Below, piece by piece: positions 14,425 to 24,625 of a stretch of DNA of 64,000 nt (its first letter is position 1; each line of letters begins with the position of its first letter). Source of the stretch: a virus. The stretch covers positions 1-64,000 of the IMG/VR virus record IMGVR_UViG_3300020558_000217. One strand, given 5' to 3'. Position numbers and translations under genes: made by a program. The notes below the pieces were generated by a model. It was not told the origin of the DNA, did not search any database, and saw only the letters and a list, made by a program, of their open reading frames with translations.

Positions 14425-14454
14425 ATAAAAAGCTGAGGGAATCAATCCCTCAGC
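14425..14454 (-). terminator. Terminator after ftsH
   Basis: GCTGAGGGA/TCCCTCAGC inverted repeat with T-run on minus strand. Confidence 0.7.
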
Positions 14455-16232
14455 GGCACCTTTCCATCTAACAGATCTAGAATTTCTTGACCTGATAGTG
14501 TTTCGTATTCAAGCAAACCCTTAGCAAGAGTGTCTAACTGCTTTCTCTTTTTAGTTAGAATACCCTTGGCAGTAGCATATGCAGTATCAATAATTTTCTT
14601 TACTTCAAGATCAATAAGTCGCTGAGTTTCTTCAGAAACCTTTGGTCCATGAAACACATCTGAATTAGGTTCAGTATATGCTACATTACCTAATGGCGAA
14701 AATCCATACTGAGTAACCATAGCACGAGCGATCTTTGATGCCTGTTGAATATCAGCAGCTGCGCCAGAAGTAACATTCTCCTCGCCAAAAACTAACTCTT
14801 CTGCTGCACGGCCACCCATTGCCATTGCAAGATAAGCAATCATTTCCTTATAAGACTGAGAAATCTGATCGCGTTCTGGTAGAGACTGAACCATACCTAA
14901 CGCACGTCCACGAGGAATAATTGTTGCCTTATGAATAGGAACAGAACCTTCCATGTTCAGAGAAACAAGAGCATGTCCGCCTTCATGATAAGCAGTCATT
15001 TTCTTTTCTTCTTCAGACATAAGAAGAGATCTACGTTCTGCGCCCATAAGAATCTTGTCACGAGCATCATCAAATTCTTTTGCTGTAACAATTCTCTTAG
15101 AACGGCGAGCAGCGAGCAATGCTGCTTCATTCACAAGATTGGCCAGATCAGCGCCAGAGAAACCTGGTGTTCCCTTAGCAACAGTTCTAAGATCAACATC
15201 TGCTCCTAGTGGAACTGCTCTACTATGAACCTTTAGAATTTTCTCGCGCCCAACAATATCTGGATTAGATACAGTAACTTGTCGATCAAAACGGCCAGGA
15301 CGAAGCAAGGCAGGATCAAGCACATCCACACGATTTGTCGCAGCGATGATGATGATACCTTCGTTGTCATTAAAGCCATCCATTTCTACTAGTAGAGCGT
15401 TTAAAGTCTGCTCACGTTCATCGTTACCGCCACTAATGCCAGCATTACGATTACGTCCAACAGCATCGATTTCATCAATGAAAATAATGCAAGGAGCATT
15501 CTTCTTTGCCTGTTCAAACATATCACGCACACGAGATGCGCCAACGCCGACAAACATTTCTACGAAGTCAGATCCAGAAAGATGGAAGAAAGGAACACCA
15601 GCTTCACCAGCTACTGCTTTAGCGAGCAGAGTTTTACCAGTTCCTGGAGGACCAACAAGTAGAACGCCCTTGGGAATTTTACCGCCAACTGCTTGGAACT
15701 TATGTGGTGCTGCTAGAAATTCTACAACTTCTTCTAGATCTTCTTTTGCTTCATCTACACCAGCAACGTCATCGAACTTGACATTGATTTCTTCCTCAGA
15801 AAGCATCTTTGCTTTAGACTTGCCCATAGACAATGGACCACGTCCACCAATTCCAGAAGTTCTTCTTGATAACCAAATCCAAATACTAAAGAACAAAAGA
15901 ACAGGTAGTAGATTAATTGCTAGATTAGTGAAGAATCCTGTTTCTTCTGGTGGAGTTGCTGATACTTGTAACTTCTTACCTTTGATCTGTTCCATAAAAT
16001 TACCGACTGATGGAACATATGTACTAAATGTCCTGTTGTCAACAAAATGACCAGTAACTTGATTTCCTGCAATAGTGAGATCATGGACTCTTCCTTCATC
16101 GATTTGAGTAACAAGCTCGCTAAACCCAATTTCTCTTGAGTATGTTTTGTGAGAACTTTCATTCCACATAGAATATAGAAAAATTCCTGTTAATACAAAC
16201 AACACCCAAGGAGTAATTTTTCTCCAATCCAT
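14442..16232 (-). CDS. ftsH: ATP-dependent zinc metalloprotease FtsH
   Basis: Two TM helices, [27 protein letters not shown]. Confidence 0.97.
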
Positions 16233-16287: not shown

Positions 16288-16953
16288 TCAAATTCTTGCT
16301 GCTTGAAAATGCATACCATCAGGACGGCGTTCCCAACGACCACCCCAAACCCAACCTTCTGCCTCAAACGCCTGAACGATTAGAGACTTTTCAGTGAAAG
16401 AGTGCTTATTGTATCCTGGCTTTTTACCAAGAGCATTCCAAGGTGCGGCAATGTCAATAGCGACACCAAAGGCATGAGTAGAAAGAGAAGAACCGCCACG
16501 CATGTTACGGATGTTCCAGGTGCCAGAAAAGACATGTAGTTGCTGTGCTTTGATCTTATCATAGTCTCTGCCATTCTCGTCCCACACATATGTTAGAACA
16601 CGAACAAGAGAATCGGCGCAGGACTTATTCATCCATGTTCTGGTAATCTTAATATCGTCCATCCACATGGTATAAGGTAGATTGACCTGAACCATGTGCT
16701 TTCTAAACGCTCCGCCGTAATCTGGTGTGCCGAACTTTGCACGAAGTTCGCGCTGTAGGGGCCATACGTTTTTCTTTAGTTTACCAGCGGTAGGAACCTT
16801 AGCGTCTGCTACTGTATTGATGACATCAACGAACTTTGTTTCGTCAGCTTCTTTAACTGCCACCTCAGTCGTATAAACTTTACCATCAAAAATAAATGTT
16901 TCTTTGCCAGCTTTTCTCGCATCAGCAAATGCTTGTTTGAATGTTTTAGCCAT
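16288..16953 (-). CDS. M15 family peptidoglycan peptidase (endolysin candidate)
   Basis: R.MRGG..LSTHAFGVAIDI...WGGRW...DGMHFQ. Confidence 0.85.
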   Translation of the reverse strand: MAKTFKQAFADARKAGKETFIFDGKVYTTEVAVKEADETKFVDVINTVADAKVPTAGKLKKNVWPLQRELRAKFGTPDYGGAFRKHMVQVNLPYTMWMDDIKITRTWMNKSCADSLVRVLTYVWDENGRDYDKIKAQQLHVFSGTWNIRNMRGGSSLSTHAFGVAIDIAAPWNALGKKPGYNKHSFTEKSLIVQAFEAEGWVWGGRWERRPDGMHFQAARI

Positions 16954-16969
16954 AATTAATCTCCTATGA

Positions 16970-17000
16970 TAAATGGGAGGACCGAAGCCCTCCCATATTT
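16970..17000 (-). terminator. Terminator after hsp20
   Basis: ATGGGAGG/CCTCCCAT hairpin. Confidence 0.65.
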
Positions 17001-17006
17001 AGAAGA

Positions 17007-17453
17007 TTATTTGATGTCTACCTTTTTAGTTTTCTTTTCTTCTGGAACAACATTCTCTAAGAAGATCTTTAACATACCATTAACATATTCAGCATTCTTC
17101 ACTTCGACTGTGTCAGCAAGAGTAAACTTGCGAGTAAATACACGATCAGCGATACCTTTGTACAGATACTGAACTGGGTTTGTCACGGGATCAACATCAT
17201 CTAAAGAGAATCCACCCTTTACAACAAGAGTGTTATTCGCGAGTTCAATGTCGAGATTGTGTTTTCCGAAACCAGCCACTGCGAGTTCAATAGTATAGTT
17301 ATTATCGTCCACTTTTACAATATTGTAGGGAGGCCAGTTAGTAGCTTTTGCATAAGATTCTTGAGCAGATGCTAGTGTTTTTAGCATACGATCTGCGCCA
17401 ACAAACCACTTGTCGATATTACCTGTGTTGAAAGAAAATACATCATTAGTCAT
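17007..17453 (-). CDS. hsp20: Small heat shock protein Hsp20 (IbpA-like)
   Basis: PPYNI, IELAVAGF, YLYKGIA.R.F.R.FTL, NGML.I. Confidence 0.95.
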   Translation of the reverse strand: MTNDVFSFNTGNIDKWFVGADRMLKTLASAQESYAKATNWPPYNIVKVDDNNYTIELAVAGFGKHNLDIELANNTLVVKGGFSLDDVDPVTNPVQYLYKGIADRVFTRKFTLADTVEVKNAEYVNGMLKIFLENVVPEEKKTKKVDIK

Positions 17454-17525
17454 CTTTATTCTCCTTTAGAGCGAGTATAGATTACGTATCCCTTACGGCG
17501 ATACAACATATTATATAATAGTTGT

Positions 17526-17551
17526 GAGGGGAAAGTCAAGCTCTCCCCTCA
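17526..17551 (-). terminator. Hairpin after pmoC, overlapping a putative hsp20 -35
   Basis: GAGGGGA/TCCCCTC inverted repeat. Confidence 0.55.
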
Positions 17552-17560
17552 ATTATTTTC

Positions 17561-18322
17561 TTATTCTGTTAGAAGTCTAACGCCTTCACGACCAACTAGA
17601 GCATGAACACGCCCTAGGATCTGTAGAACAACTCCAAATACACCCAATGCCATCCAGCCGAAGAACACGAAGCCCCAATGAAGAGGAGCGACAAATAGTT
17701 CTTCCATGAACCAGAAAGTATGACCCCACTCGTTGAGACCAACGTTTGGAATGATCATAAATGGTCCAATGGCAACAATCAAGAATGCTAGGCTGTATCC
17801 ATGTGAGAAGTATGGAATACGAGTGCGAGCATAAAAGAAAGCACCAACAGCAATGATTGAGTAAATTGGGTATGACATATAGAACTCAATGATATGACTT
17901 GGAGTAAAGTCAGTATCACGAATTACAGTCATGTGCCATGTTCCATCCTGTTCAGTGAAAAAAGATGCGCCCCAGTAAATGGCGACGGCATACACAACAA
18001 GCCACTGAACTAAAGTAACTAGACGGCGCATTTCCTCGCGAGGAGTTACGCTGTCGATGGCTCGATCTCTAGTCTTCCAAAGATAACCAGCAAGTGCTAG
18101 ACCTGATACTAGCTCAAGCGGAATCTCTGTCCAAAGAATAGACATCCAATATGTCTGAAACTCTGGAGCAAATGAATCAAGTCCGGCCCTCCAGCCATAA
18201 ACCTGTTCATAGATACGAACAATGAGATAGAATGTGTTTAATAGGCCAAGGCCAATCCACATACCACGGAGATCGACGACATCTGCCTTTTCTGCAACTG
18301 CAGTAGTAGTTACTGTACTCAT
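17561..18322 (-). CDS. pmoC: Particulate methane monooxygenase subunit C
   Basis: EQDGTWH, RDTDFTPSHIIEFY, NEWGHTFWFMEELFVAPLHWGFV; N-terminus VVDLRGMWIGL as in Methylocystis-type PmoC. Confidence 0.97.
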   Translation of the reverse strand: MSTVTTTAVAEKADVVDLRGMWIGLGLLNTFYLIVRIYEQVYGWRAGLDSFAPEFQTYWMSILWTEIPLELVSGLALAGYLWKTRDRAIDSVTPREEMRRLVTLVQWLVVYAVAIYWGASFFTEQDGTWHMTVIRDTDFTPSHIIEFYMSYPIYSIIAVGAFFYARTRIPYFSHGYSLAFLIVAIGPFMIIPNVGLNEWGHTFWFMEELFVAPLHWGFVFFGWMALGVFGVVLQILGRVHALVGREGVRLLTE

Positions 18323-18395
18323 GTATAATTCTCCATTGAGAAAAAAATCAAGTGGTCAGTTTCGCCTTGGTGACGGAAACCGCCACTCTTGAGTA

Positions 18396-18426
18396 TATTT
18401 ATACTATAACCCTATTTGAAAGTCAA
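18396..18426 (-). promoter_or_regulatory. Overlapping sigma70-like and T4 late promoter for pmoC
   Basis: TTGACT-N17-TATAAA; the -10 is part of TATAAATA. Confidence 0.6.
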
Positions 18427-18429
18427 ATA

Positions 18430-18660
18430 CTATTTTCTGAGATCACGATCAGTAGCATCTAACCAGTACTGTTTACCGTCTTTTGGCCAACCCCATGGAT
18501 TTTCTTTATAATTTGGTGGTTCGATGTCGTCATACTCTTCATGACGAATCTTATCTTTGTAATAATGACGGTAACGACGATGATCTTTTATTCTTCCTGG
18601 TTTATCGCTCGGTGCACTAGTAATACCAAAACCTGGATGTTTTTTATAACTTCTAGACAT
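18430..18660 (-). CDS. Small basic hypothetical protein
   Basis: MSRSYKK...WGWPKDGKQYW; GGAGG RBS. Confidence 0.6.
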   Translation of the reverse strand: MSRSYKKHPGFGITSAPSDKPGRIKDHRRYRHYYKDKIRHEEYDDIEPPNYKENPWGWPKDGKQYWLDATDRDLRK

Positions 18661-18672
18661 TAGATACCTCCA

Positions 18673-18894
18673 TTAATGAAGTTTCTTACCAAAAGTCTCC
18701 TTTGCAACCACATATATTGACATAGTGTATCTGTCCATAATAAAAATAGGAGTCATGTTAGCAGCCTTAAAATCTTCAGCTGCTTCTAAAACTATTCTGA
18801 TGCCAGATTCTTCGTCTTCAGGAATATAATCGACAGCCTGTCTCAATACATCTTCTGGAATTTGAATCATGTTTTCTAAATTAGGTTTCCTCAT
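18673..18894 (-). CDS. Hypothetical protein
   Basis: Tightly packed ORF in the minus-strand operon. Confidence 0.55.
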   Translation of the reverse strand: MRKPNLENMIQIPEDVLRQAVDYIPEDEESGIRIVLEAAEDFKAANMTPIFIMDRYTMSIYVVAKETFGKKLH

Positions 18895-19231
18895 TTTTAT
18901 CTTTCTTGAAATAAGTCATATATTGTGTAGCATAATCGACGAACGACTTATATCCAAAAAATGTTATATACATTATATTTCTATACCATTCATATACAGG
19001 ATTTCTAGCCAACAAGTCTGACTCTTTTATTTTCTTTCTTCTGGGTCTTTTCTTTAATAAAGACTTATCTTCTATCATAGTCTCAAAAAACTTTATTCTT
19101 CCCTCTATGTAAAGTTTACCCTTCTCCACTTCAGGATCGTTTTTCAAAAGTTTAGAAACTCTCCTTAGATGCTTTCGATTTCTCATTGAATTGTGGAGTT
19201 GTTCAAGTAAGATTTCGTCAAGTTCATTCAT
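18881..19231 (-). CDS. Hypothetical protein
   Basis: Probable start MNELDE coupled to the glycosyltransferase stop. Confidence 0.5.
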   Translation of the reverse strand: MNELDEILLEQLHNSMRNRKHLRRVSKLLKNDPEVEKGKLYIEGRIKFFETMIEDKSLLKKRPRRKKIKESDLLARNPVYEWYRNIMYITFFGYKSFVDYATQYMTYFKKDKNEET

Positions 19232-20226
19232 ACCAGATTTTCTACAAACTGATCGGTTGCTGCTTCCCATGAGAAATGCTTTGCTCTTGCTACTGCATCT
19301 TCTCGTTTCAATAGAAAAGCACCTGTGATGGCAACTTCTAGATTATCCTTTGATAGATAACCAGATTTCGTGTCAATGATATATCTGTTCACTTCATTGT
19401 CAAATGCTGCTACAGGCAAACCACATGCCATTCCTTCAAGCACAACAAGACCGAATGTATCTGTCATGGATGGCCATGCAAAGACATCTTGTACCTGTAA
19501 TGTTCTAGCGATTTCTTCTGGTGTTTTTCTACCCAAAAAATAGGCATCTGGATATTTTGCTTTGTATTCTTCTAACTGTGGACCATCACCAATAATAAAC
19601 TTTACGATACTTTCATTCTTTATACTCAGAAATGCTTCTAGGTTTTTCTCGGCTGATACTCTACCGACATAGATAGCCCGAATGACCTTTTCTACTTCCA
19701 TCTTCTTCCAGTTTGGATCGGGTTTGAAAAGATCGGTATCAACACCACGAGACCATAACTTTAGGTTTTTGATACCCAGTGTATCACAGTAATCAACCAT
19801 GGCGGGGGTAGGAACCATAACACAATCGCTGTTTCTATGGAACCAACGAAAATACCGACCAGTAATTCTTGGTGGTATATAAGCATGTTCATATAGATAA
19901 TCTGGATACTTAGTATGGAACGATGTGGTATAGCGTCGTTTATACTTCTTGCAATAATATCTAGCGGCAAGACCTATGCTTCCTTCTGTTGCTATGTGAA
20001 TGTGGTTCGCATTCTTCACATATTCATCAGCGATACCCATAGGCAAAAGTGGCATATAAATGCCCGTTGATGGTTGTAGTGGAACTGTCACCTTGAACAT
20101 ACCAGGATGGACAACTTTTACATCATAACCACGTTTCTCAAGATGCTTGATTGTCGTCTTTAGTGTAGTGACAACTCCATTGATTTGTGGTTCCCAAGCA
20201 TCGGTAAAAATTGTAATGTTTGTCAT
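19228..20226 (-). CDS. GT4 glycosyltransferase, Agt-like glycolipid synthase
   Basis: TDAWEPQINGVV, HIATEG.IG, TSFHT.YP.Y, WSRGVD, YVGRVSAEKNL, PS.TDTFGLV.LE.MACGLPV. Confidence 0.85.
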   Translation of the reverse strand: MTNITIFTDAWEPQINGVVTTLKTTIKHLEKRGYDVKVVHPGMFKVTVPLQPSTGIYMPLLPMGIADEYVKNANHIHIATEGSIGLAARYYCKKYKRRYTTSFHTKYPDYLYEHAYIPPRITGRYFRWFHRNSDCVMVPTPAMVDYCDTLGIKNLKLWSRGVDTDLFKPDPNWKKMEVEKVIRAIYVGRVSAEKNLEAFLSIKNESIVKFIIGDGPQLEEYKAKYPDAYFLGRKTPEEIARTLQVQDVFAWPSMTDTFGLVVLEGMACGLPVAAFDNEVNRYIIDTKSGYLSKDNLEVAITGAFLLKREDAVARAKHFSWEAATDQFVENLV

Positions 20227-20966
20227 CGTCTTATAATCTCAAACTTTCCATTATAGTGTTCAACAAGTGCGGTGCAGGATTCTACCCAATCGCCGCAGTT
20301 CATATACTCAACATCATCAAAAGAACATATATTAGCATGATGTATGTGACCGCAAACCACACCATCTACGCATCTCCTTTTGGCAGCATCGGCAACTACC
20401 TTTTCATAGTCACCAATAAAGTTTACTGCTTCCTTGACATTTTGTTTCGCCCATGCCGAAAGAGAGAAACCGTTGATGCCAAAATAATTATATATGTTCT
20501 GTAGATATCTGTTTAGATCAATCATTCTATCATACAACCAACCGCCGATAAGAGCAAGCCACTTGGCGTTTGTTGTAATCAGGTCAAACTGATCACCATG
20601 GATTACAAGATATCTCTTACCATTCTCTCCATTATGAATAGTTTCATTCACCAATTTGATATTACCCATTTCGGTGCCAGCATACTCACGAAGAAACTCG
20701 TCATGATTGCCAGTTACATAATAGACTTCTACTGATTTCTTTGATTGCTTTAGAAAGAACTGAATGACTTCGTTGTGCGCCTGAGGCCAATAGACTTTGT
20801 TTCGCATCATCCATCCGTCAATAATATCACCAACCAAGTAGTATCTATCGGCTTCGGTTTCTTTTAGAAACTCTAATAACTTTTCAGCATTAGAATATTT
20901 TGTACCCAAATGAACATCTGATATAAAGATAGCACGATACTTCTTTTTCTCTTTGTTCTTCAACAC
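20223..20966 (-). CDS. Metallophosphoesterase, PlcP-like phospholipase C (LpxH-like family)
   Basis: FISDVHLG, LVGDIIDGW, YWPQAHN, GNHDEFLR, HGDQFD, CGHIH, NCGDWVESCTALVE. Confidence 0.85.
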   Translation of the reverse strand: MLKNKEKKKYRAIFISDVHLGTKYSNAEKLLEFLKETEADRYYLVGDIIDGWMMRNKVYWPQAHNEVIQFFLKQSKKSVEVYYVTGNHDEFLREYAGTEMGNIKLVNETIHNGENGKRYLVIHGDQFDLITTNAKWLALIGGWLYDRMIDLNRYLQNIYNYFGINGFSLSAWAKQNVKEAVNFIGDYEKVVADAAKRRCVDGVVCGHIHHANICSFDDVEYMNCGDWVESCTALVEHYNGKFEIIRR

Positions 20967-20997
20967 CGCTCCTTTGGTTAGAAGGCAAGACTATTTA

Positions 20998-21363
20998 TCA
21001 TATCATGTCCATCGTAAAAATAGCACGAATGTATTTTTGTGGATCAAATTCAATCCTTCTACGAGCAAATACAACAAATCCAAGGTCATCTCCAGTCATT
21101 ACTTCTCTCATAGATTTGCCCGTCGTGTATACATCGTCGACAACTAATCGTAATGGAACTCCTGGTGTAATGTACTTTTCCAACGCTAAAGCCAATTTAA
21201 CGCCGCCACGAGGAATACCATAAACACTGCCAAAACGAGTACGCTCATGAATGATCCTTGCTAAACAATCCCAATCTCCATCAGTCAAAGCATCGCATTC
21301 AATTTTCCAATTTAACTCATGTCCAGCATGAGATATAAAGTTTCCTTCTTGAAATAAATTCAT
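20998..21363 (-). CDS. Minimal type I phosphoribosyltransferase
   Basis: GIPRGG and LVVDDVYTTGKSM PRPP-binding loop. Confidence 0.8.
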   Translation of the reverse strand: MNLFQEGNFISHAGHELNWKIECDALTDGDWDCLARIIHERTRFGSVYGIPRGGVKLALALEKYITPGVPLRLVVDDVYTTGKSMREVMTGDDLGFVVFARRRIEFDPQKYIRAIFTMDMI

Positions 21364-21626
21364 TCAATTACCTCTTCTTCAAACATTCTTCCTGGGAGTG
21401 TAGGTCCAGGCGCAGAAGCACTACCTGCCATGCTTCTAGCAATACCATATCCAGTATTGTATCCAGAAGTCGCTCCTTCGCTCCAGCCAGGATTGCTCCA
21501 TGAATATGCTGGAGTAGAAGAAGGAGGACCACCGCTCAAAGAATGATATGGTTGTGCGAAACTATTTGCTGCACTAGCAACCGTGGGGAATACCACCATT
21601 GAGATTATCATCAAAGATTTCATCAT
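21360..21626 (-). CDS. Hypothetical exported protein
   Basis: Signal peptide-like N-terminus ending ASA. Confidence 0.5.
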   Translation of the reverse strand: MMKSLMIISMVVFPTVASAANSFAQPYHSLSGGPPSSTPAYSWSNPGWSEGATSGYNTGYGIARSMAGSASAPGPTLPGRMFEEEVIE

Positions 21627-22413
21627 ACATTCTTTTTCCTTTTCTTTTTAAATAGATACCATTGTAGTAGAAAGAATCCTATAAATCTATTAACATAGTC
21701 ATTAAAAGTCAAATCATGTTTGTTAAGACTTTTGCGTAGTTTAGAATTTTCTTCCTCTAATCGTTCAATCGTATATGCTGCCTTTCTTGGAACAGAATGA
21801 CAATGGACGCTATTGTGTTTTTCAACCCAATTGGCCAGTTCATGTAATTGATTCACCAGTTCATCGGACATTTCTCAATCTCTTTTCAATTTCTAGATAT
21901 AATTCTAGATTAGGATATATAGAGCCAGAATATAACTGCCTGATTAGTTTTCCTGTAAATTTATTGTTTATACCACGAACTGTCTTGGCGAATAGTTTGA
22001 AATCATATCCATCAAACAAACTTCCAGTATAGATCATTTTTTGACCTTTCTAGTATAAATTTCTGGTGGTATCTTTTGTGCCACAACTTTCCATACACCA
22101 GTTACATTCTGTTCGGTTTCGACATAATTCGCCACTTCATCTACGGAAGTAAATGAAATAGCGAACTCGTTTCCACTCCTCTTGGAATGAACCACATATT
22201 TACAAGTATCTTCTTTATAGTCAAAGATCATGTCTCTTTCCATTCAAGCATGTTTTTCATATCATTGAGGCGCTGGTCTCTCATTGCTTCGTCTTTTTCA
22301 GATAGAACCTTTTCTAGAAGGCCAAAAAGGAATAGACAGTTCATCTTGTTTTCAACGTTTTCTTTTGGCACATCGTTGATTATAGCGTTTAGTTTTTCGT
22401 TCTGTAAAATCAT
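21623..22413 (-). CDS. Run of four small hypothetical ORFs (21623-21871, about 21861-22037, 22034-22243, 22228-22413)
   Basis: Start/stop-coupled ORFs on the operon strand. Confidence 0.5.
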
Positions 22414-24068
22414 AGTTCTGCCCTCATCATTGTATCCGAACCGAAACGGATACGCTTTAGTAGAAAACTCGTTTCTGGTAGAATGCGTTCCATAAAATAT
22501 TCTGCGGTATTGTGTCTGTCCTTATCGTCAGTAGCAAGACAGATACGAATATGTGCCATGCCAAGTAATACTAATCCAAACATTTTCATGTAGTCGTAGG
22601 AAGCGCCACCAGCATTATTAGGATTTTTCATGCCATTTTCTACCAACCATTCTGTTGCTTGCTTTAGTTCACTTACTGCCTGTGTCATTGGCTGAACAAT
22701 GTCATTGATCTGCTTATCGTAAGAACTGGTCAAGAATGCTTCGCTATCATTGAAGAACCTTGTAATAGCACGACCCATATCCTTTGGCAACTTACGACCA
22801 ATCAAGTCTAGTGCCTGAATGCCATTAGCGCCTTCATAGATTTGACAGATACGAGCGTCACGAACAATCTGCTCCATACCCCATTCTTTGATGTATCCAT
22901 GACCACCGAAGACCTGTTGCGCTTTTACAGCATTCTCAAAACCATAATCTGTTAGAACGCCTTTGAGAACTGGAGTCATTAGACCAAGACGATCCTGTGC
23001 TTCTTGTGATTTATCATCGCAAAGCATTGCCGCTTCTAGAACAAGAAGTCGTCCAGCTTCATTGATACATTTGATATCCATAAGCATACGGCGAACGTCA
23101 GGATGTTCTATGATAGCAACAGACTTACCTTTGGGATCTGTAATCTTGGCACTTTGAATACGATCTTTGGCATAAGCAAGAGCATTTTGATATGCCAACT
23201 CCGATTGCGATAGACCTTGAACAGCAACACCAAGGCGTGCCTCATTCATCATAATGAACATGGCATTTAGACCCTTGCATCGTTCACCAACAAGATAACC
23301 AATAGCACCATCATAGTTCATCACGCAAGTTGGCGAACCATGAATGCCCATCTTTTCTTCAATAGATCCACAAGACACATTATTTTGTTTCTCTCTCCAA
23401 AGTTTTGGGACCACAAACATACTAATGCCTTTGACGCCTTCTGGATCTCCCTCAATACGAGCAAGAACAAGATGAACGATATTATCTGCTAGATCATGCT
23501 CACCACATGAAATGAAAATCTTTTGGCCTGTGATATAAAATTCATCTTCTAAAAGAGCAGGAGTAGCCTTTGTCTTAATCAAACCAAGATCAGTTCCACA
23601 ATGCGGTTCTGTCAGGTTCATTGTGCCTGTCCATTCACCAGATGCCATCTTGGGAATGAAATGTTGCTTCTGTCCTTCTGTTGCAACTTCTAATAGTGCT
23701 TGAATATTTCCACGAGTAAGGCCGGGCAAAAGAGAGAAAGCTATATTAGACGAGGATACAAACTCGTTTACCGCAGCCGAAAGTGTATATGGTAGACCTT
23801 GGCCACCATATTGTTCAGGAACTGATAAACCAAGCCAACCACCTTCTTTGAATTTCTTCCACGGTTCATGGAAAACTGCTGGTACAATAACATCGTCAAA
23901 TACGCATCTTTCACAACCAAGTTTATCTCCAGACTGATTAGTAGGAGCAATAACTTCTTCGCATAGTTTTGCTGCTTCGGTTAGAATCGGCTCTGTAAGT
24001 TCATTGTCGAACTTTAGAACATCACGAAGAAGAAACGTTGTCGATACTACTGGTGCTGTGTATTTCAT
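22410..24068 (-). CDS. Acyl-CoA dehydrogenase
   Basis: GTMNLTEPHCGTDLG, GQKIFIS, EEKMGIHGSPTC, QVFGGHGYI, IYEGANGIQALDL. Confidence 0.95.
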   Translation of the reverse strand: MKYTAPVVSTTFLLRDVLKFDNELTEPILTEAAKLCEEVIAPTNQSGDKLGCERCVFDDVIVPAVFHEPWKKFKEGGWLGLSVPEQYGGQGLPYTLSAAVNEFVSSSNIAFSLLPGLTRGNIQALLEVATEGQKQHFIPKMASGEWTGTMNLTEPHCGTDLGLIKTKATPALLEDEFYITGQKIFISCGEHDLADNIVHLVLARIEGDPEGVKGISMFVVPKLWREKQNNVSCGSIEEKMGIHGSPTCVMNYDGAIGYLVGERCKGLNAMFIMMNEARLGVAVQGLSQSELAYQNALAYAKDRIQSAKITDPKGKSVAIIEHPDVRRMLMDIKCINEAGRLLVLEAAMLCDDKSQEAQDRLGLMTPVLKGVLTDYGFENAVKAQQVFGGHGYIKEWGMEQIVRDARICQIYEGANGIQALDLIGRKLPKDMGRAITRFFNDSEAFLTSSYDKQINDIVQPMTQAVSELKQATEWLVENGMKNPNNAGGASYDYMKMFGLVLLGMAHIRICLATDDKDRHNTAEYFMERILPETSFLLKRIRFGSDTMMRAEL

Positions 24069-24112
24069 TATGATAATCCTTCCAAAAAATCTTTATGATC
24101 TTCGGATCCCAC

Positions 24113-24346
24113 TCATTCTTTTATATTATCATGCTTATGCATAAGGTCATAGTAAAATTGATAAGCATCTTTATGAACCCATTCCTCTACGCCATTAGCC
24201 TGAGTTGTTAGATAAACTAAATCTGTCAAATCTGTTTTTTCATTATTTCTTTCGATACTAAACATAATAGTATGTTCCGGATTATTGAAATCTGGCTTTT
24301 CACGTCTTACAAAAATGAATTCACTTTCTGGTTTCGTCTTTGTCAT
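24113..24346 (-). CDS. Hypothetical protein
   Basis: 77 aa ORF. Confidence 0.45.
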   Translation of the reverse strand: MTKTKPESEFIFVRREKPDFNNPEHTIMFSIERNNEKTDLTDLVYLTTQANGVEEWVHKDAYQFYYDLMHKHDNIKE

Positions 24347-24484
24347 TTTCTTCCTGCTCCAACTTGTTCATCAACTTTAGATATCTCTCGGACATCATTC
24401 CATCAAACTTCTTGTCATGGGAGTAATGAACCATCCACGACAAGTCTGCCTCAATCAGTGATTTTAGTTTTTCCCACTTATCCA

Positions 24485-24625
24485 TCACATACCAAACTGC
24501 TTCTTTACAATAGCAACTGCCGCTTCAAATGCTTCGTCTAATTGAGCGTCAGTAGGTCCATCGCCTAGAATCTTACGCATTTCCTCGACTGCCGCTGCCT
24601 TGGTTTCTTCAGTAATCTTGAACAT
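24485..24625 (-). CDS. Small hypothetical protein (not in ORF track)
   Basis: MFKITEETKAAAVEEMRKILGDG...; GGAG RBS. Confidence 0.55.
   Translation of the reverse strand: MFKITEETKAAAVEEMRKILGDGPTDAQLDEAFEAAVAIVKKQFGM

Follow-up and report, generated by a model that had tools for sequence, protein, structure and literature searches.

A 64,000-nucleotide stretch of the IMG/VR virus record IMGVR_UViG_3300020558_000217 (positions 1 to 64,000 of that record; hereafter, the window) encodes two adjacent genes that, judging from their sequences, very probably represent the bacterial lipid-renovation cassette plcP-agt, in a copy that resides in phages. The predicted products are a PlcP-type phospholipase C and an Agt-type diacylglycerol glycosyltransferase. 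Both open reading frames (ORFs) lie on the minus strand, between positions 19228 and 20966, and encode proteins of 247 and 332 amino acids, respectively. A first-pass annotation of the window had described translationally coupled genes for a metallophosphoesterase and a family 4 glycosyltransferase (GT4); all the motifs on which that description was based are present, and the two frames overlap by the stop/start sequence ATGA. The window itself derives from a T4-like myophage, as evidenced by genes for a DNA polymerase (phrog_262), a DnaB helicase, a baseplate wedge protein (phrog_219), and tail and virion proteins.

The first protein matches the Pfam family Metallophos (8.8e-14) and carries the motifs SDVHLG (residues 16-21), GDIIDGW (46-52), YWPQ (59-62), GNHDEF (86-91) and GDWVESCTALVE (225-236). 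Seven residues, D17, H19, D47, N87, H123, H207 and H209, align to the metal ligands of LpxH, a metallophosphoesterase of the lipid A pathway, and are invariant in alignment A1, so that the binuclear metal site of a calcineurin-type metallophosphoesterase is complete; PlcP residues were mapped through LpxH alignments. The two proteins thus have the seven ligands in common, as well as a metallophosphoesterase fold with a helical insertion. In contrast, their conserved motifs differ: YWPQxHN, SLSxWAK, VNFIG and GDWVESCTA, which are invariant across the family and all present in the window protein, are unlike those of LpxH.

An alternative interpretation is that the first gene is an lpxH and the second encodes a lipopolysaccharide (LPS) or cell-wall glycosyltransferase, with which the phage would modify lipid A or LPS. 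Database names point this way, as relatives are labelled 'LpxH' and 'glycosyltransferase involved in cell wall biosynthesis' by the Joint Genome Institute, and the LpxH name is carried by GenBank phage records and used in virome surveys. The best PDB matches by sequence and by fold are also LpxH enzymes. However, the window protein scores far below the cut-offs of both NCBIfam LpxH equivalog models (55.9 bits against a cut-off of 134 for NF003743, and 51.2 bits against 190.35 for TIGR01854). Genomes of Pseudomonas and Pantoea encode a true LpxH (336-345 bits) along with a second gene (39-43 bits), and it is this paralogue that is homologous to the window gene. Moreover, the closest relatives occur in Alphaproteobacteria, and no match to the LpxH models was found at E <= 1e-5 in the Methylocystis and A. 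tumefaciens genomes.

The nearest cellular relatives of the first protein were identified in Beijerinckiaceae, Methylocystis, Bradyrhizobium, Mesorhizobium, A. tumefaciens, M. loti and Pseudomonas, with identities of 48-55% and E values of 1e-85 to 4e-93. These lineages are those in which PlcP proteins have been characterised (PMC4796936, PMC9239053). The single LpxH-like genes of A. tumefaciens, M. loti and Methylocystis, which fall within the same identity and E-value ranges, were used as proxies for validated PlcP proteins. For comparison, Sebastian et al. delimited PlcP by a BLASTP E value < 1e-40 against MED193_17359 (PMC4796936).

Three true LpxH proteins served as the root of the PlcP tree, in which a long branch with 100% support in the Shimodaira-Hasegawa-like approximate likelihood ratio test separated them from 71 PlcP-like sequences. 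The PlcP-like sequences include the window protein, those of A. tumefaciens, M. loti and Methylocystis, the second Pseudomonas copy and a homologue from the Pelagibacter phage Mosig. In an AlphaFold model of the first protein (pLDDT 78.8), the 24 best PDB matches are all LpxH, at approximately 19% identity, a modelling result that fits a sister family of LpxH having no solved structure of its own. On its motifs, model scores and place in the tree, the first protein is assigned to the PlcP family of metallophosphoesterases and not to LpxH.

The second protein matches Glyco_transf_4 at residues 15-165 (7.3e-18) and Glycos_transf_1 at residues 177-295 (6.3e-17), and features the GT4 motifs TDAWEPQINGVV near residues 8-19 and HIATEG at 77-82; its length and two-domain layout are those of a GT-B enzyme. 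A suitable reference is the SAR11 glycosyltransferase GTcp, a 334-residue enzyme with a His104-Asp256 dyad and the motifs GRVAXEKN and FPSXTDTFG, in which Asp replaces the usual GT4 Glu (PMC8231724). The corresponding motifs in the window protein are GRVSAEKN (188-195) and WPSMTDTFG (251-259), each of which departs from GTcp by a single conservative substitution, and H104 and D256 occur at the same numbers as the GTcp dyad. Mutation of G16, G82, G85, H104, R163, R190, K195, D256, T257, F258, G259, E264 or W320 abolishes GTcp activity, and Arg163 and Trp320 are among the residues that bind diacylglycerol (PMC8231724). The window protein has G17, G82, G85, H104, R160, R189, K194, D256, T257, F258, G259, E264 and W320 at these positions, as placed by motif and published numbering, not by direct alignment. 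All 13, the dyad included, are invariant in alignment A2, which extends down to 45% identity.

Comparison with other glycosyltransferases leads to the same assignment. Only one of the 17 Glycos_transf_1 genes of the A. tumefaciens genome matches the window GT4 (42% identity over the full length, E 8e-69), and the sole match in Methylocystis is the gene adjoining plcP. In the GT4 tree, a clade of 51 sequences with 97% support takes in all plcP-adjacent GT4 proteins, both cellular and viral, along with the A. tumefaciens match. Twenty-six other glycosyltransferase paralogues from three genomes fall outside this clade, to which the second Pseudomonas copy is sister, and the viral Agt genes form a group of their own (support 91). 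By residues and clade, the second protein is classified as a predicted diacylglycerol glycosyltransferase of the Agt/GTcp type. The two proteins hence group with PlcP and with Agt, respectively, rather than with LpxH or with DNA- or LPS-modifying GT4 enzymes, in agreement with the first-pass annotation, which had read the pair as PlcP plus Agt. Given the scores, the paralogy, the tree and the GT4 residues (the Asp-for-Glu TDTFG signature and the diacylglycerol-binding positions), the LpxH/LPS interpretation is largely refuted and must be regarded as very improbable.

It is also conceivable that the GT4 acts on another acceptor, such as phage DNA, a virion protein or a different lipid, and that PlcP, working alone, is a phospholipase that degrades membranes or assists lysis. 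DNA or O-antigen is a common substrate of phage glycosyltransferases (PMC7029224), two GenBank phages, Mosig and S-SRM01, carry a PlcP without a GT4, and no adjacent GT4 was found in 24 of the 80 best viral loci. In contrast, the window GT4 falls inside the clade formed by plcP-adjacent Agt proteins and retains H104, R160 and W320, which serve diacylglycerol binding in GTcp, and a two-step pathway is favoured both by the strict coupling through ATGA and by the conservation of the two genes together across the clade. A different acceptor is accordingly improbable, though slightly less so than an LpxH identity.

The order of the two genes is that of the bacterial operon. As expected for PlcP, the next gene encodes a synthase of a phosphorus-free lipid, here of the agt type rather than pgt or btaAB. 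Of the 80 best cellular PlcP loci, 51 have a full-length homologue of the window GT4 as the next gene after plcP, in the same orientation. This adjacency corresponds to the published 'type 2' layout (Sebastian et al. 2016, PMC4796936), and plcP is located directly upstream of agt in Methylosinus trichosporium OB3b and in all type II methanotrophs (PMC9239053). Phage and bacterial pairs (the latter including those of OB3b and the type II methanotrophs, SAR11 HTCC7211 and P. aeruginosa PA3219/PA3218) share the two families, their order, strand and adjacency, as well as the catalytic and substrate-binding residues. Phage and cellular members are 48-55% (PlcP) and 31-43% (Agt) identical, within the range of two validated members, as the proteins of OB3b and HTCC7211 show 51% and 43% identity (PMC9239053). 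The phage copy differs from the bacterial operon in that it resides in a lytic-type T4-like phage, has a GC content of 38-40% rather than 60-69%, features genes joined by the ATGA overlap and is followed by a small coupled ORF in the closest relatives; no Pho box was found at the phage copy, although control through PhoB is a trait of the bacterial operon and not of the protein. Furthermore, the phage PlcP, at 247 residues, is shorter and devoid of the C-terminal tails of many cellular copies.

Relatives of the pair are frequent in viral sequences. Among the about 600 matches listed in a pattern search of IMG/VR, at least 555 contigs encode a PlcP relative. Within the 80 best of these loci, a GT4 gene is directly downstream of plcP in 48 and located elsewhere in the locus in 4 more. 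Each of the 20 loci that make up the close phage clade, at 66-98% identity to the window, has the pair head to tail; this clade receives 100% support in both the PlcP and the GT4 trees. More distant viral pairs were identified in phages of 149, 338 and 480 kb that are complete by direct terminal repeats (DTR). PHROGs holds no specific family for either protein, as weak generic matches alone were obtained.

Two phages with GenBank records encode PlcP homologues annotated as UDP-2,3-diacylglucosamine hydrolase: the Pelagibacter phage Mosig EXVC030M (Mosig_00120, 44% identity) and the Synechococcus phage S-SRM01 (QPX48289, 38% identity). Both proteins belong to the PlcP clade in the tree, and both phages are T4-like myophages of the Kyanoviridae type. 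No Agt-type GT4 matching the window gene was found in either record. Mosig is a cultured pelagiphage in which plcP divergently adjoins a phage pstS gene (MT647606.1, 93031-94866), and it offers a ready experimental system for a phage PlcP. For the bacterial pair, there are plcP-agt mutants of Methylosinus OB3b and Phaeobacter MED193.

Base composition and divergence indicate that both genes are old phage residents under purifying selection. The GC content of phage plcP and agt genes ranges from 38 to 40%, and from 31 to 37% at third codon positions (GC3), matching the phage, whereas the Methylocystis and Beijerinckiaceae genes have 60-69% GC and 78-87% GC3. Identity to the Methylocystis copies is 53% for PlcP and 39% for Agt, compared with 79% for PmoC. 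Ratios of non-synonymous to synonymous substitution (dN/dS) within the phage clade are 0.03-0.09 for plcP and 0.09-0.22 for agt. A recent capture from the host, an assembly chimera or functionless, decaying passengers might be suspected, as the nearby pmoC and acyl-CoA dehydrogenase genes look host-derived (PMC7674155). However, beyond the composition, the low identity to the host lineage and dN/dS values of at most 0.22, both frames are intact and every catalytic residue is kept. The arrangement is not an assembly chimera because contigs of four other lake metagenomes span the same pmoC-GT4 and GT4/PlcP junctions, with few single-nucleotide polymorphisms. These explanations are refuted by the combined data, and are the least probable of those considered.

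The proposed mechanism is taken from the biochemistry of the two families (PMC4796936, PMC8231724, PMC9239053). PlcP, an Mn-type enzyme, would cut the phospho-head group from host phosphatidylethanolamine, phosphatidylglycerol and phosphatidylcholine, leaving diacylglycerol. Agt would then transfer glucose or glucuronic acid from a uridine diphosphate (UDP)-sugar to diacylglycerol, and the resulting phosphorus-free glycolipid would maintain the bilayer, the ATGA overlap keeping the synthesis of the two enzymes in step. PlcP would release phospho-alcohols, not phosphate, and a phosphatase, presumably that of the host, would still be required. We consider it highly likely that the phage enzymes have PlcP and Agt activities in the infected Methylocystis-like host, because of residue conservation and clade membership.

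What the phage would gain is less certain. Chances are about even that the benefit lies in releasing membrane phosphorus, free of control by host PhoB, for the synthesis of phage DNA, a proposal based on the pstS and phoH neighbours of the pair in other phages and on the phosphorus limitation typical of lakes. For instance, at 81% PlcP identity to the window, loci L092 (9237-11736 of a 162-kb IMG/VR record, 98% complete) and L095 have the order phoH-plcP-agt, preceded by a gene for RNase H and a DUF6433 gene. In L118 (10001-14180 of a DTR-complete, 149-kb IMG/VR record; plcP 54% and agt 43% identity), a pstS gene 45% identical to that of Mosig lies approximately 2.5 kb downstream of the pair, and phoH is present elsewhere in the genome. 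The plcP-agt pair therefore resembles the phosphorus-stress genes pstS, phoA and phoH of cyanophages and pelagiphages, which are likewise host-derived genes on T4-like aquatic phages, and which the pair adjoins (phoH or pstS) in some relatives. It differs from them in its presumed target: pstS, phoA and phoH act on uptake or on external organic phosphorus, whereas plcP-agt would tap the membrane pool of the cell itself.

Several points weigh against this interpretation of the pair. Family membership rests on homologues from related strains and genera and on published motif and residue numbering. Homologues from A. tumefaciens, M. loti, Pseudomonas and Methylocystis stood in for the references SMc00171, MED193_17359, PB7211_983/960, Atu2297 and PA3219/3218. 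The activity of the phage copies is a prediction from sequence. Nothing in this phage points to phosphorus stress, because a Pho box, pstS and phoH are missing from the record: no TGTCA-N5-7-TGTCA box was found in the window, and neither pstS nor phoH was found in the 105.6 kb of the record, which is about 62% complete. In this respect the window departs from the phosphorus-stress gene sets of cyanophages and pelagiphages. A relaxed search (CTGTCAT-N4-CTGTCAT, 3 mismatches) returned 2 distant matches in the window, none of which is near the pair, against 6.7 expected by chance. Among the public sequencing runs listed for positions 17500-21400, there is no RNA run. Finally, a phosphatase step stands between the product of PlcP and usable phosphate.

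The lipid swap may also be real while its benefit lies in an altered membrane or cell surface rather than in phosphorus supply. Adsorption or entry of competing phages could be blocked, the charge of the envelope changed, or the intracytoplasmic membranes held so that particulate methane monooxygenase (pMMO), together with the phage PmoC, continues to supply energy. The absence of a Pho box, pstS and phoH here is in keeping with such a benefit, as is the block of co-directional genes that the pair forms with pmoC, hsp20 and ftsH in the window. The first-pass annotation had stated that Methylosinus uses plcP-agt; this is borne out by strain OB3b and the type II methanotrophs, which have the pair, and at low phosphate a plcP-agt mutant of OB3b oxidises methane more slowly and its intracytoplasmic membranes are loose (PMC9239053). 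In addition, published accounts connect lipid renovation with phage adsorption.

The distribution of pmoC speaks against a benefit of this kind. Among 41 PlcP-bearing viral records searched over their whole length, pmoC was found in only 4, and the 37 records in which it was missing include three DTR-complete genomes. In a relative 98% identical to the window, pmoC lies 41 kb from plcP; in the L092 record it is 44 kb away from the cassette, and no pmoC was found in the L095 record. The order plcP-agt-pmoC seen in the window is common to three loci only, and no pmoC match was obtained in the isolate/GenBank phage collection. PlcP is also present in phages of non-methanotroph hosts, and the conserved neighbour of the pair, where there is one, is pstS or phoH. 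An altered membrane or surface as the principal benefit is accordingly unlikely. The position of the cassette varies among relatives, either following phoH or distant from pmoC; the two genes have therefore moved together within the phage lineage, and plcP-agt behaves as a mobile unit in phages.

A second, independent co-occurrence of plcP-agt with pmoC was identified in another phage lineage. Loci L146 (135.7-kb record) and L148 have their own plcP-agt pair (52-53% and 33-38% identity, respectively) and, 5-8 kb from it, a different pmoC/amoC gene (62-69% identity, 406 bits to AmoC). The link of pmoC to plcP-agt is local, not general. The first-pass annotation had tied the pair specifically to pMMO-bearing membranes, and this part of it is not supported by the comparison, considering the missing or distant pmoC genes, the placement of the cassette after phoH in relatives at 81% identity, and the far greater divergence of the pair than of PmoC from the host lineage. 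Upkeep of the intracytoplasmic membranes and pMMO in phosphorus-poor lake hosts, which would not exclude phosphorus release, is a rather doubtful additional benefit: it fits the OB3b mutant phenotype and the neighbours of the pair in the window, but not the comparative data.

Features of the locus are listed in Table 1. An AAGGAG box lies 2 nt from GTG 20966 and 5 nt from TTG 20963, either of which may be the start of plcP; the nearest relatives are 246 residues long. The small, very basic ORF that follows agt is a possible third gene of the coupled cassette. Its homologues (43-85% identity) are found directly after agt in loci L084-L088, L090, L091 and L101, and do not follow agt in the remaining loci of the close clade.

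Table 1 Features of the plcP-agt locus and its surroundings in the window
Feature	Position	Strand	Remarks
plcP-like gene, PlcP-family Mn-type metallophosphoesterase (predicted phospholipase C)	20223..20966	-	247 aa; 246 aa with TTG 20963 as start
agt-like gene, Agt/GTcp-type GT4 diacylglycerol glycosyltransferase (predicted)	19228..20226	-	332 aa
ATGA stop/start overlap, plcP to agt	20223..20226	-	read from sequence
AAGGAG ribosome-binding site 5' of plcP	20969..20974	-	read from sequence
Small, very basic ORF	18881..19231	-	116 aa from the 14th codon; no Pfam family; ATG overlaps the agt stop by ATGA
T4-type late-promoter-like TATAAATA	18396-18403	-	~74 nt upstream of the pmoC start
pmoC (context, outside the cassette)	17561..18322	-	AmoC 362 bits, 1.3e-108
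Full-length ftsH	14442-16232	-	
ORF directly upstream of plcP	20998-21363	-	121 aa
Acyl-CoA dehydrogenase gene	22410-24068	-	552 aa; all four ACAD domains

Downstream of agt, pmoC is reached after approximately 900 nt and three small ORFs, and is followed by genes for Hsp20, an M15 peptidase, FtsH and a DNA polymerase. The co-directional block that includes plcP-agt, pmoC, hsp20 and ftsH also contains the acyl-CoA dehydrogenase gene upstream of the pair; a Methylocystis-like ACAD fragment near pmoC has been reported in related phages (Chen et al. 2020, PMC7674155). The ORF directly upstream of plcP, from which it is separated by a gap of 31 nt, contains the sequence VVDDVYTTGKS, which resembles the phosphoribosyl pyrophosphate-binding loop of type I phosphoribosyltransferases. 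This ORF matches no Pfam or NCBIfam model and is kept upstream of plcP in loci L088, L090 and L091.

A scan of positions 16900-24500 for sigma-70 promoters and terminators gave site counts not above those of shuffled sequence. A single late-promoter-like TATAAATA precedes pmoC and is not found upstream of plcP. The window contains 10 sites of this type, compared with approximately 7 expected by chance. On this one weak site, pmoC may be transcribed late, apart from plcP-agt.

The host of this lake phage is probably a methane-oxidising bacterium. The window PmoC is 79% identical to that of a Methylocystis metagenome-assembled genome, and the size, GC content and alpha-type pmoC of the phage agree with those of the 160-175 kb myophages described by Chen et al. 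2020 (PMC7674155).

Both enzymes belong to known families, and the apparent novelty lies in the viral carrier and in the ecological meaning that comes with it. No paper on virus-encoded plcP or plcP-agt was found in the open-licence PMC and bioRxiv literature, a scope within which absence is not proof. The accessible portions of the pmoC-phage paper and its supplements (PMC7674155) do not mention plcP or agt, and those of the pelagimyophage and S-SRM01 papers do not discuss the PlcP gene. The first-pass annotation, which knew of no description of the pair as a phage module, is thus in accord with the literature, with the qualification that PlcP homologues were already present in GenBank phage records under the LpxH name. 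A virome study counts 'lpxH' among the LPS genes of surface waters (PMC10653327), and this may be the same gene as phage plcP.

Membrane phospholipid is among the largest phosphorus pools of bacteria, and methanotrophs have stacked internal membranes. Equipped with a phospholipase C and a glycolipid synthase of its own, a phage could release membrane phosphorus for genomes of 160-175 kb before the starvation response of the host sets in, and could meanwhile keep the host membrane, and perhaps pMMO, working. We tentatively propose, at somewhat less than even chances, that large aquatic phages generally force lipid renovation on their hosts without recourse to the Pho regulon, a strategy in which membrane phospholipid becomes a phosphorus source and glycolipid keeps the cell intact. 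Such a strategy would draw on a mobile plcP(-agt) cassette carried by T4-like and jumbo phages that infect methanotrophs, SAR11 or cyanobacteria, and present in the at least 555 IMG/VR contigs among the matches listed. If this is true, the pair would constitute a new class beside the phosphorus-stress auxiliary genes pstS, phoA and phoH, and virome matches to 'lpxH' would have to be reread, as genes counted as LPS biosynthesis in phosphorus-poor surface waters would be plcP. Viral infection would then bear on how much phosphorus the lipids of lake and ocean bacteria contain, and on methane oxidation where phosphorus is limiting, and the cassette of methanotroph phages, together with pmoC, would keep methane oxidation going in phosphorus-limited lakes.

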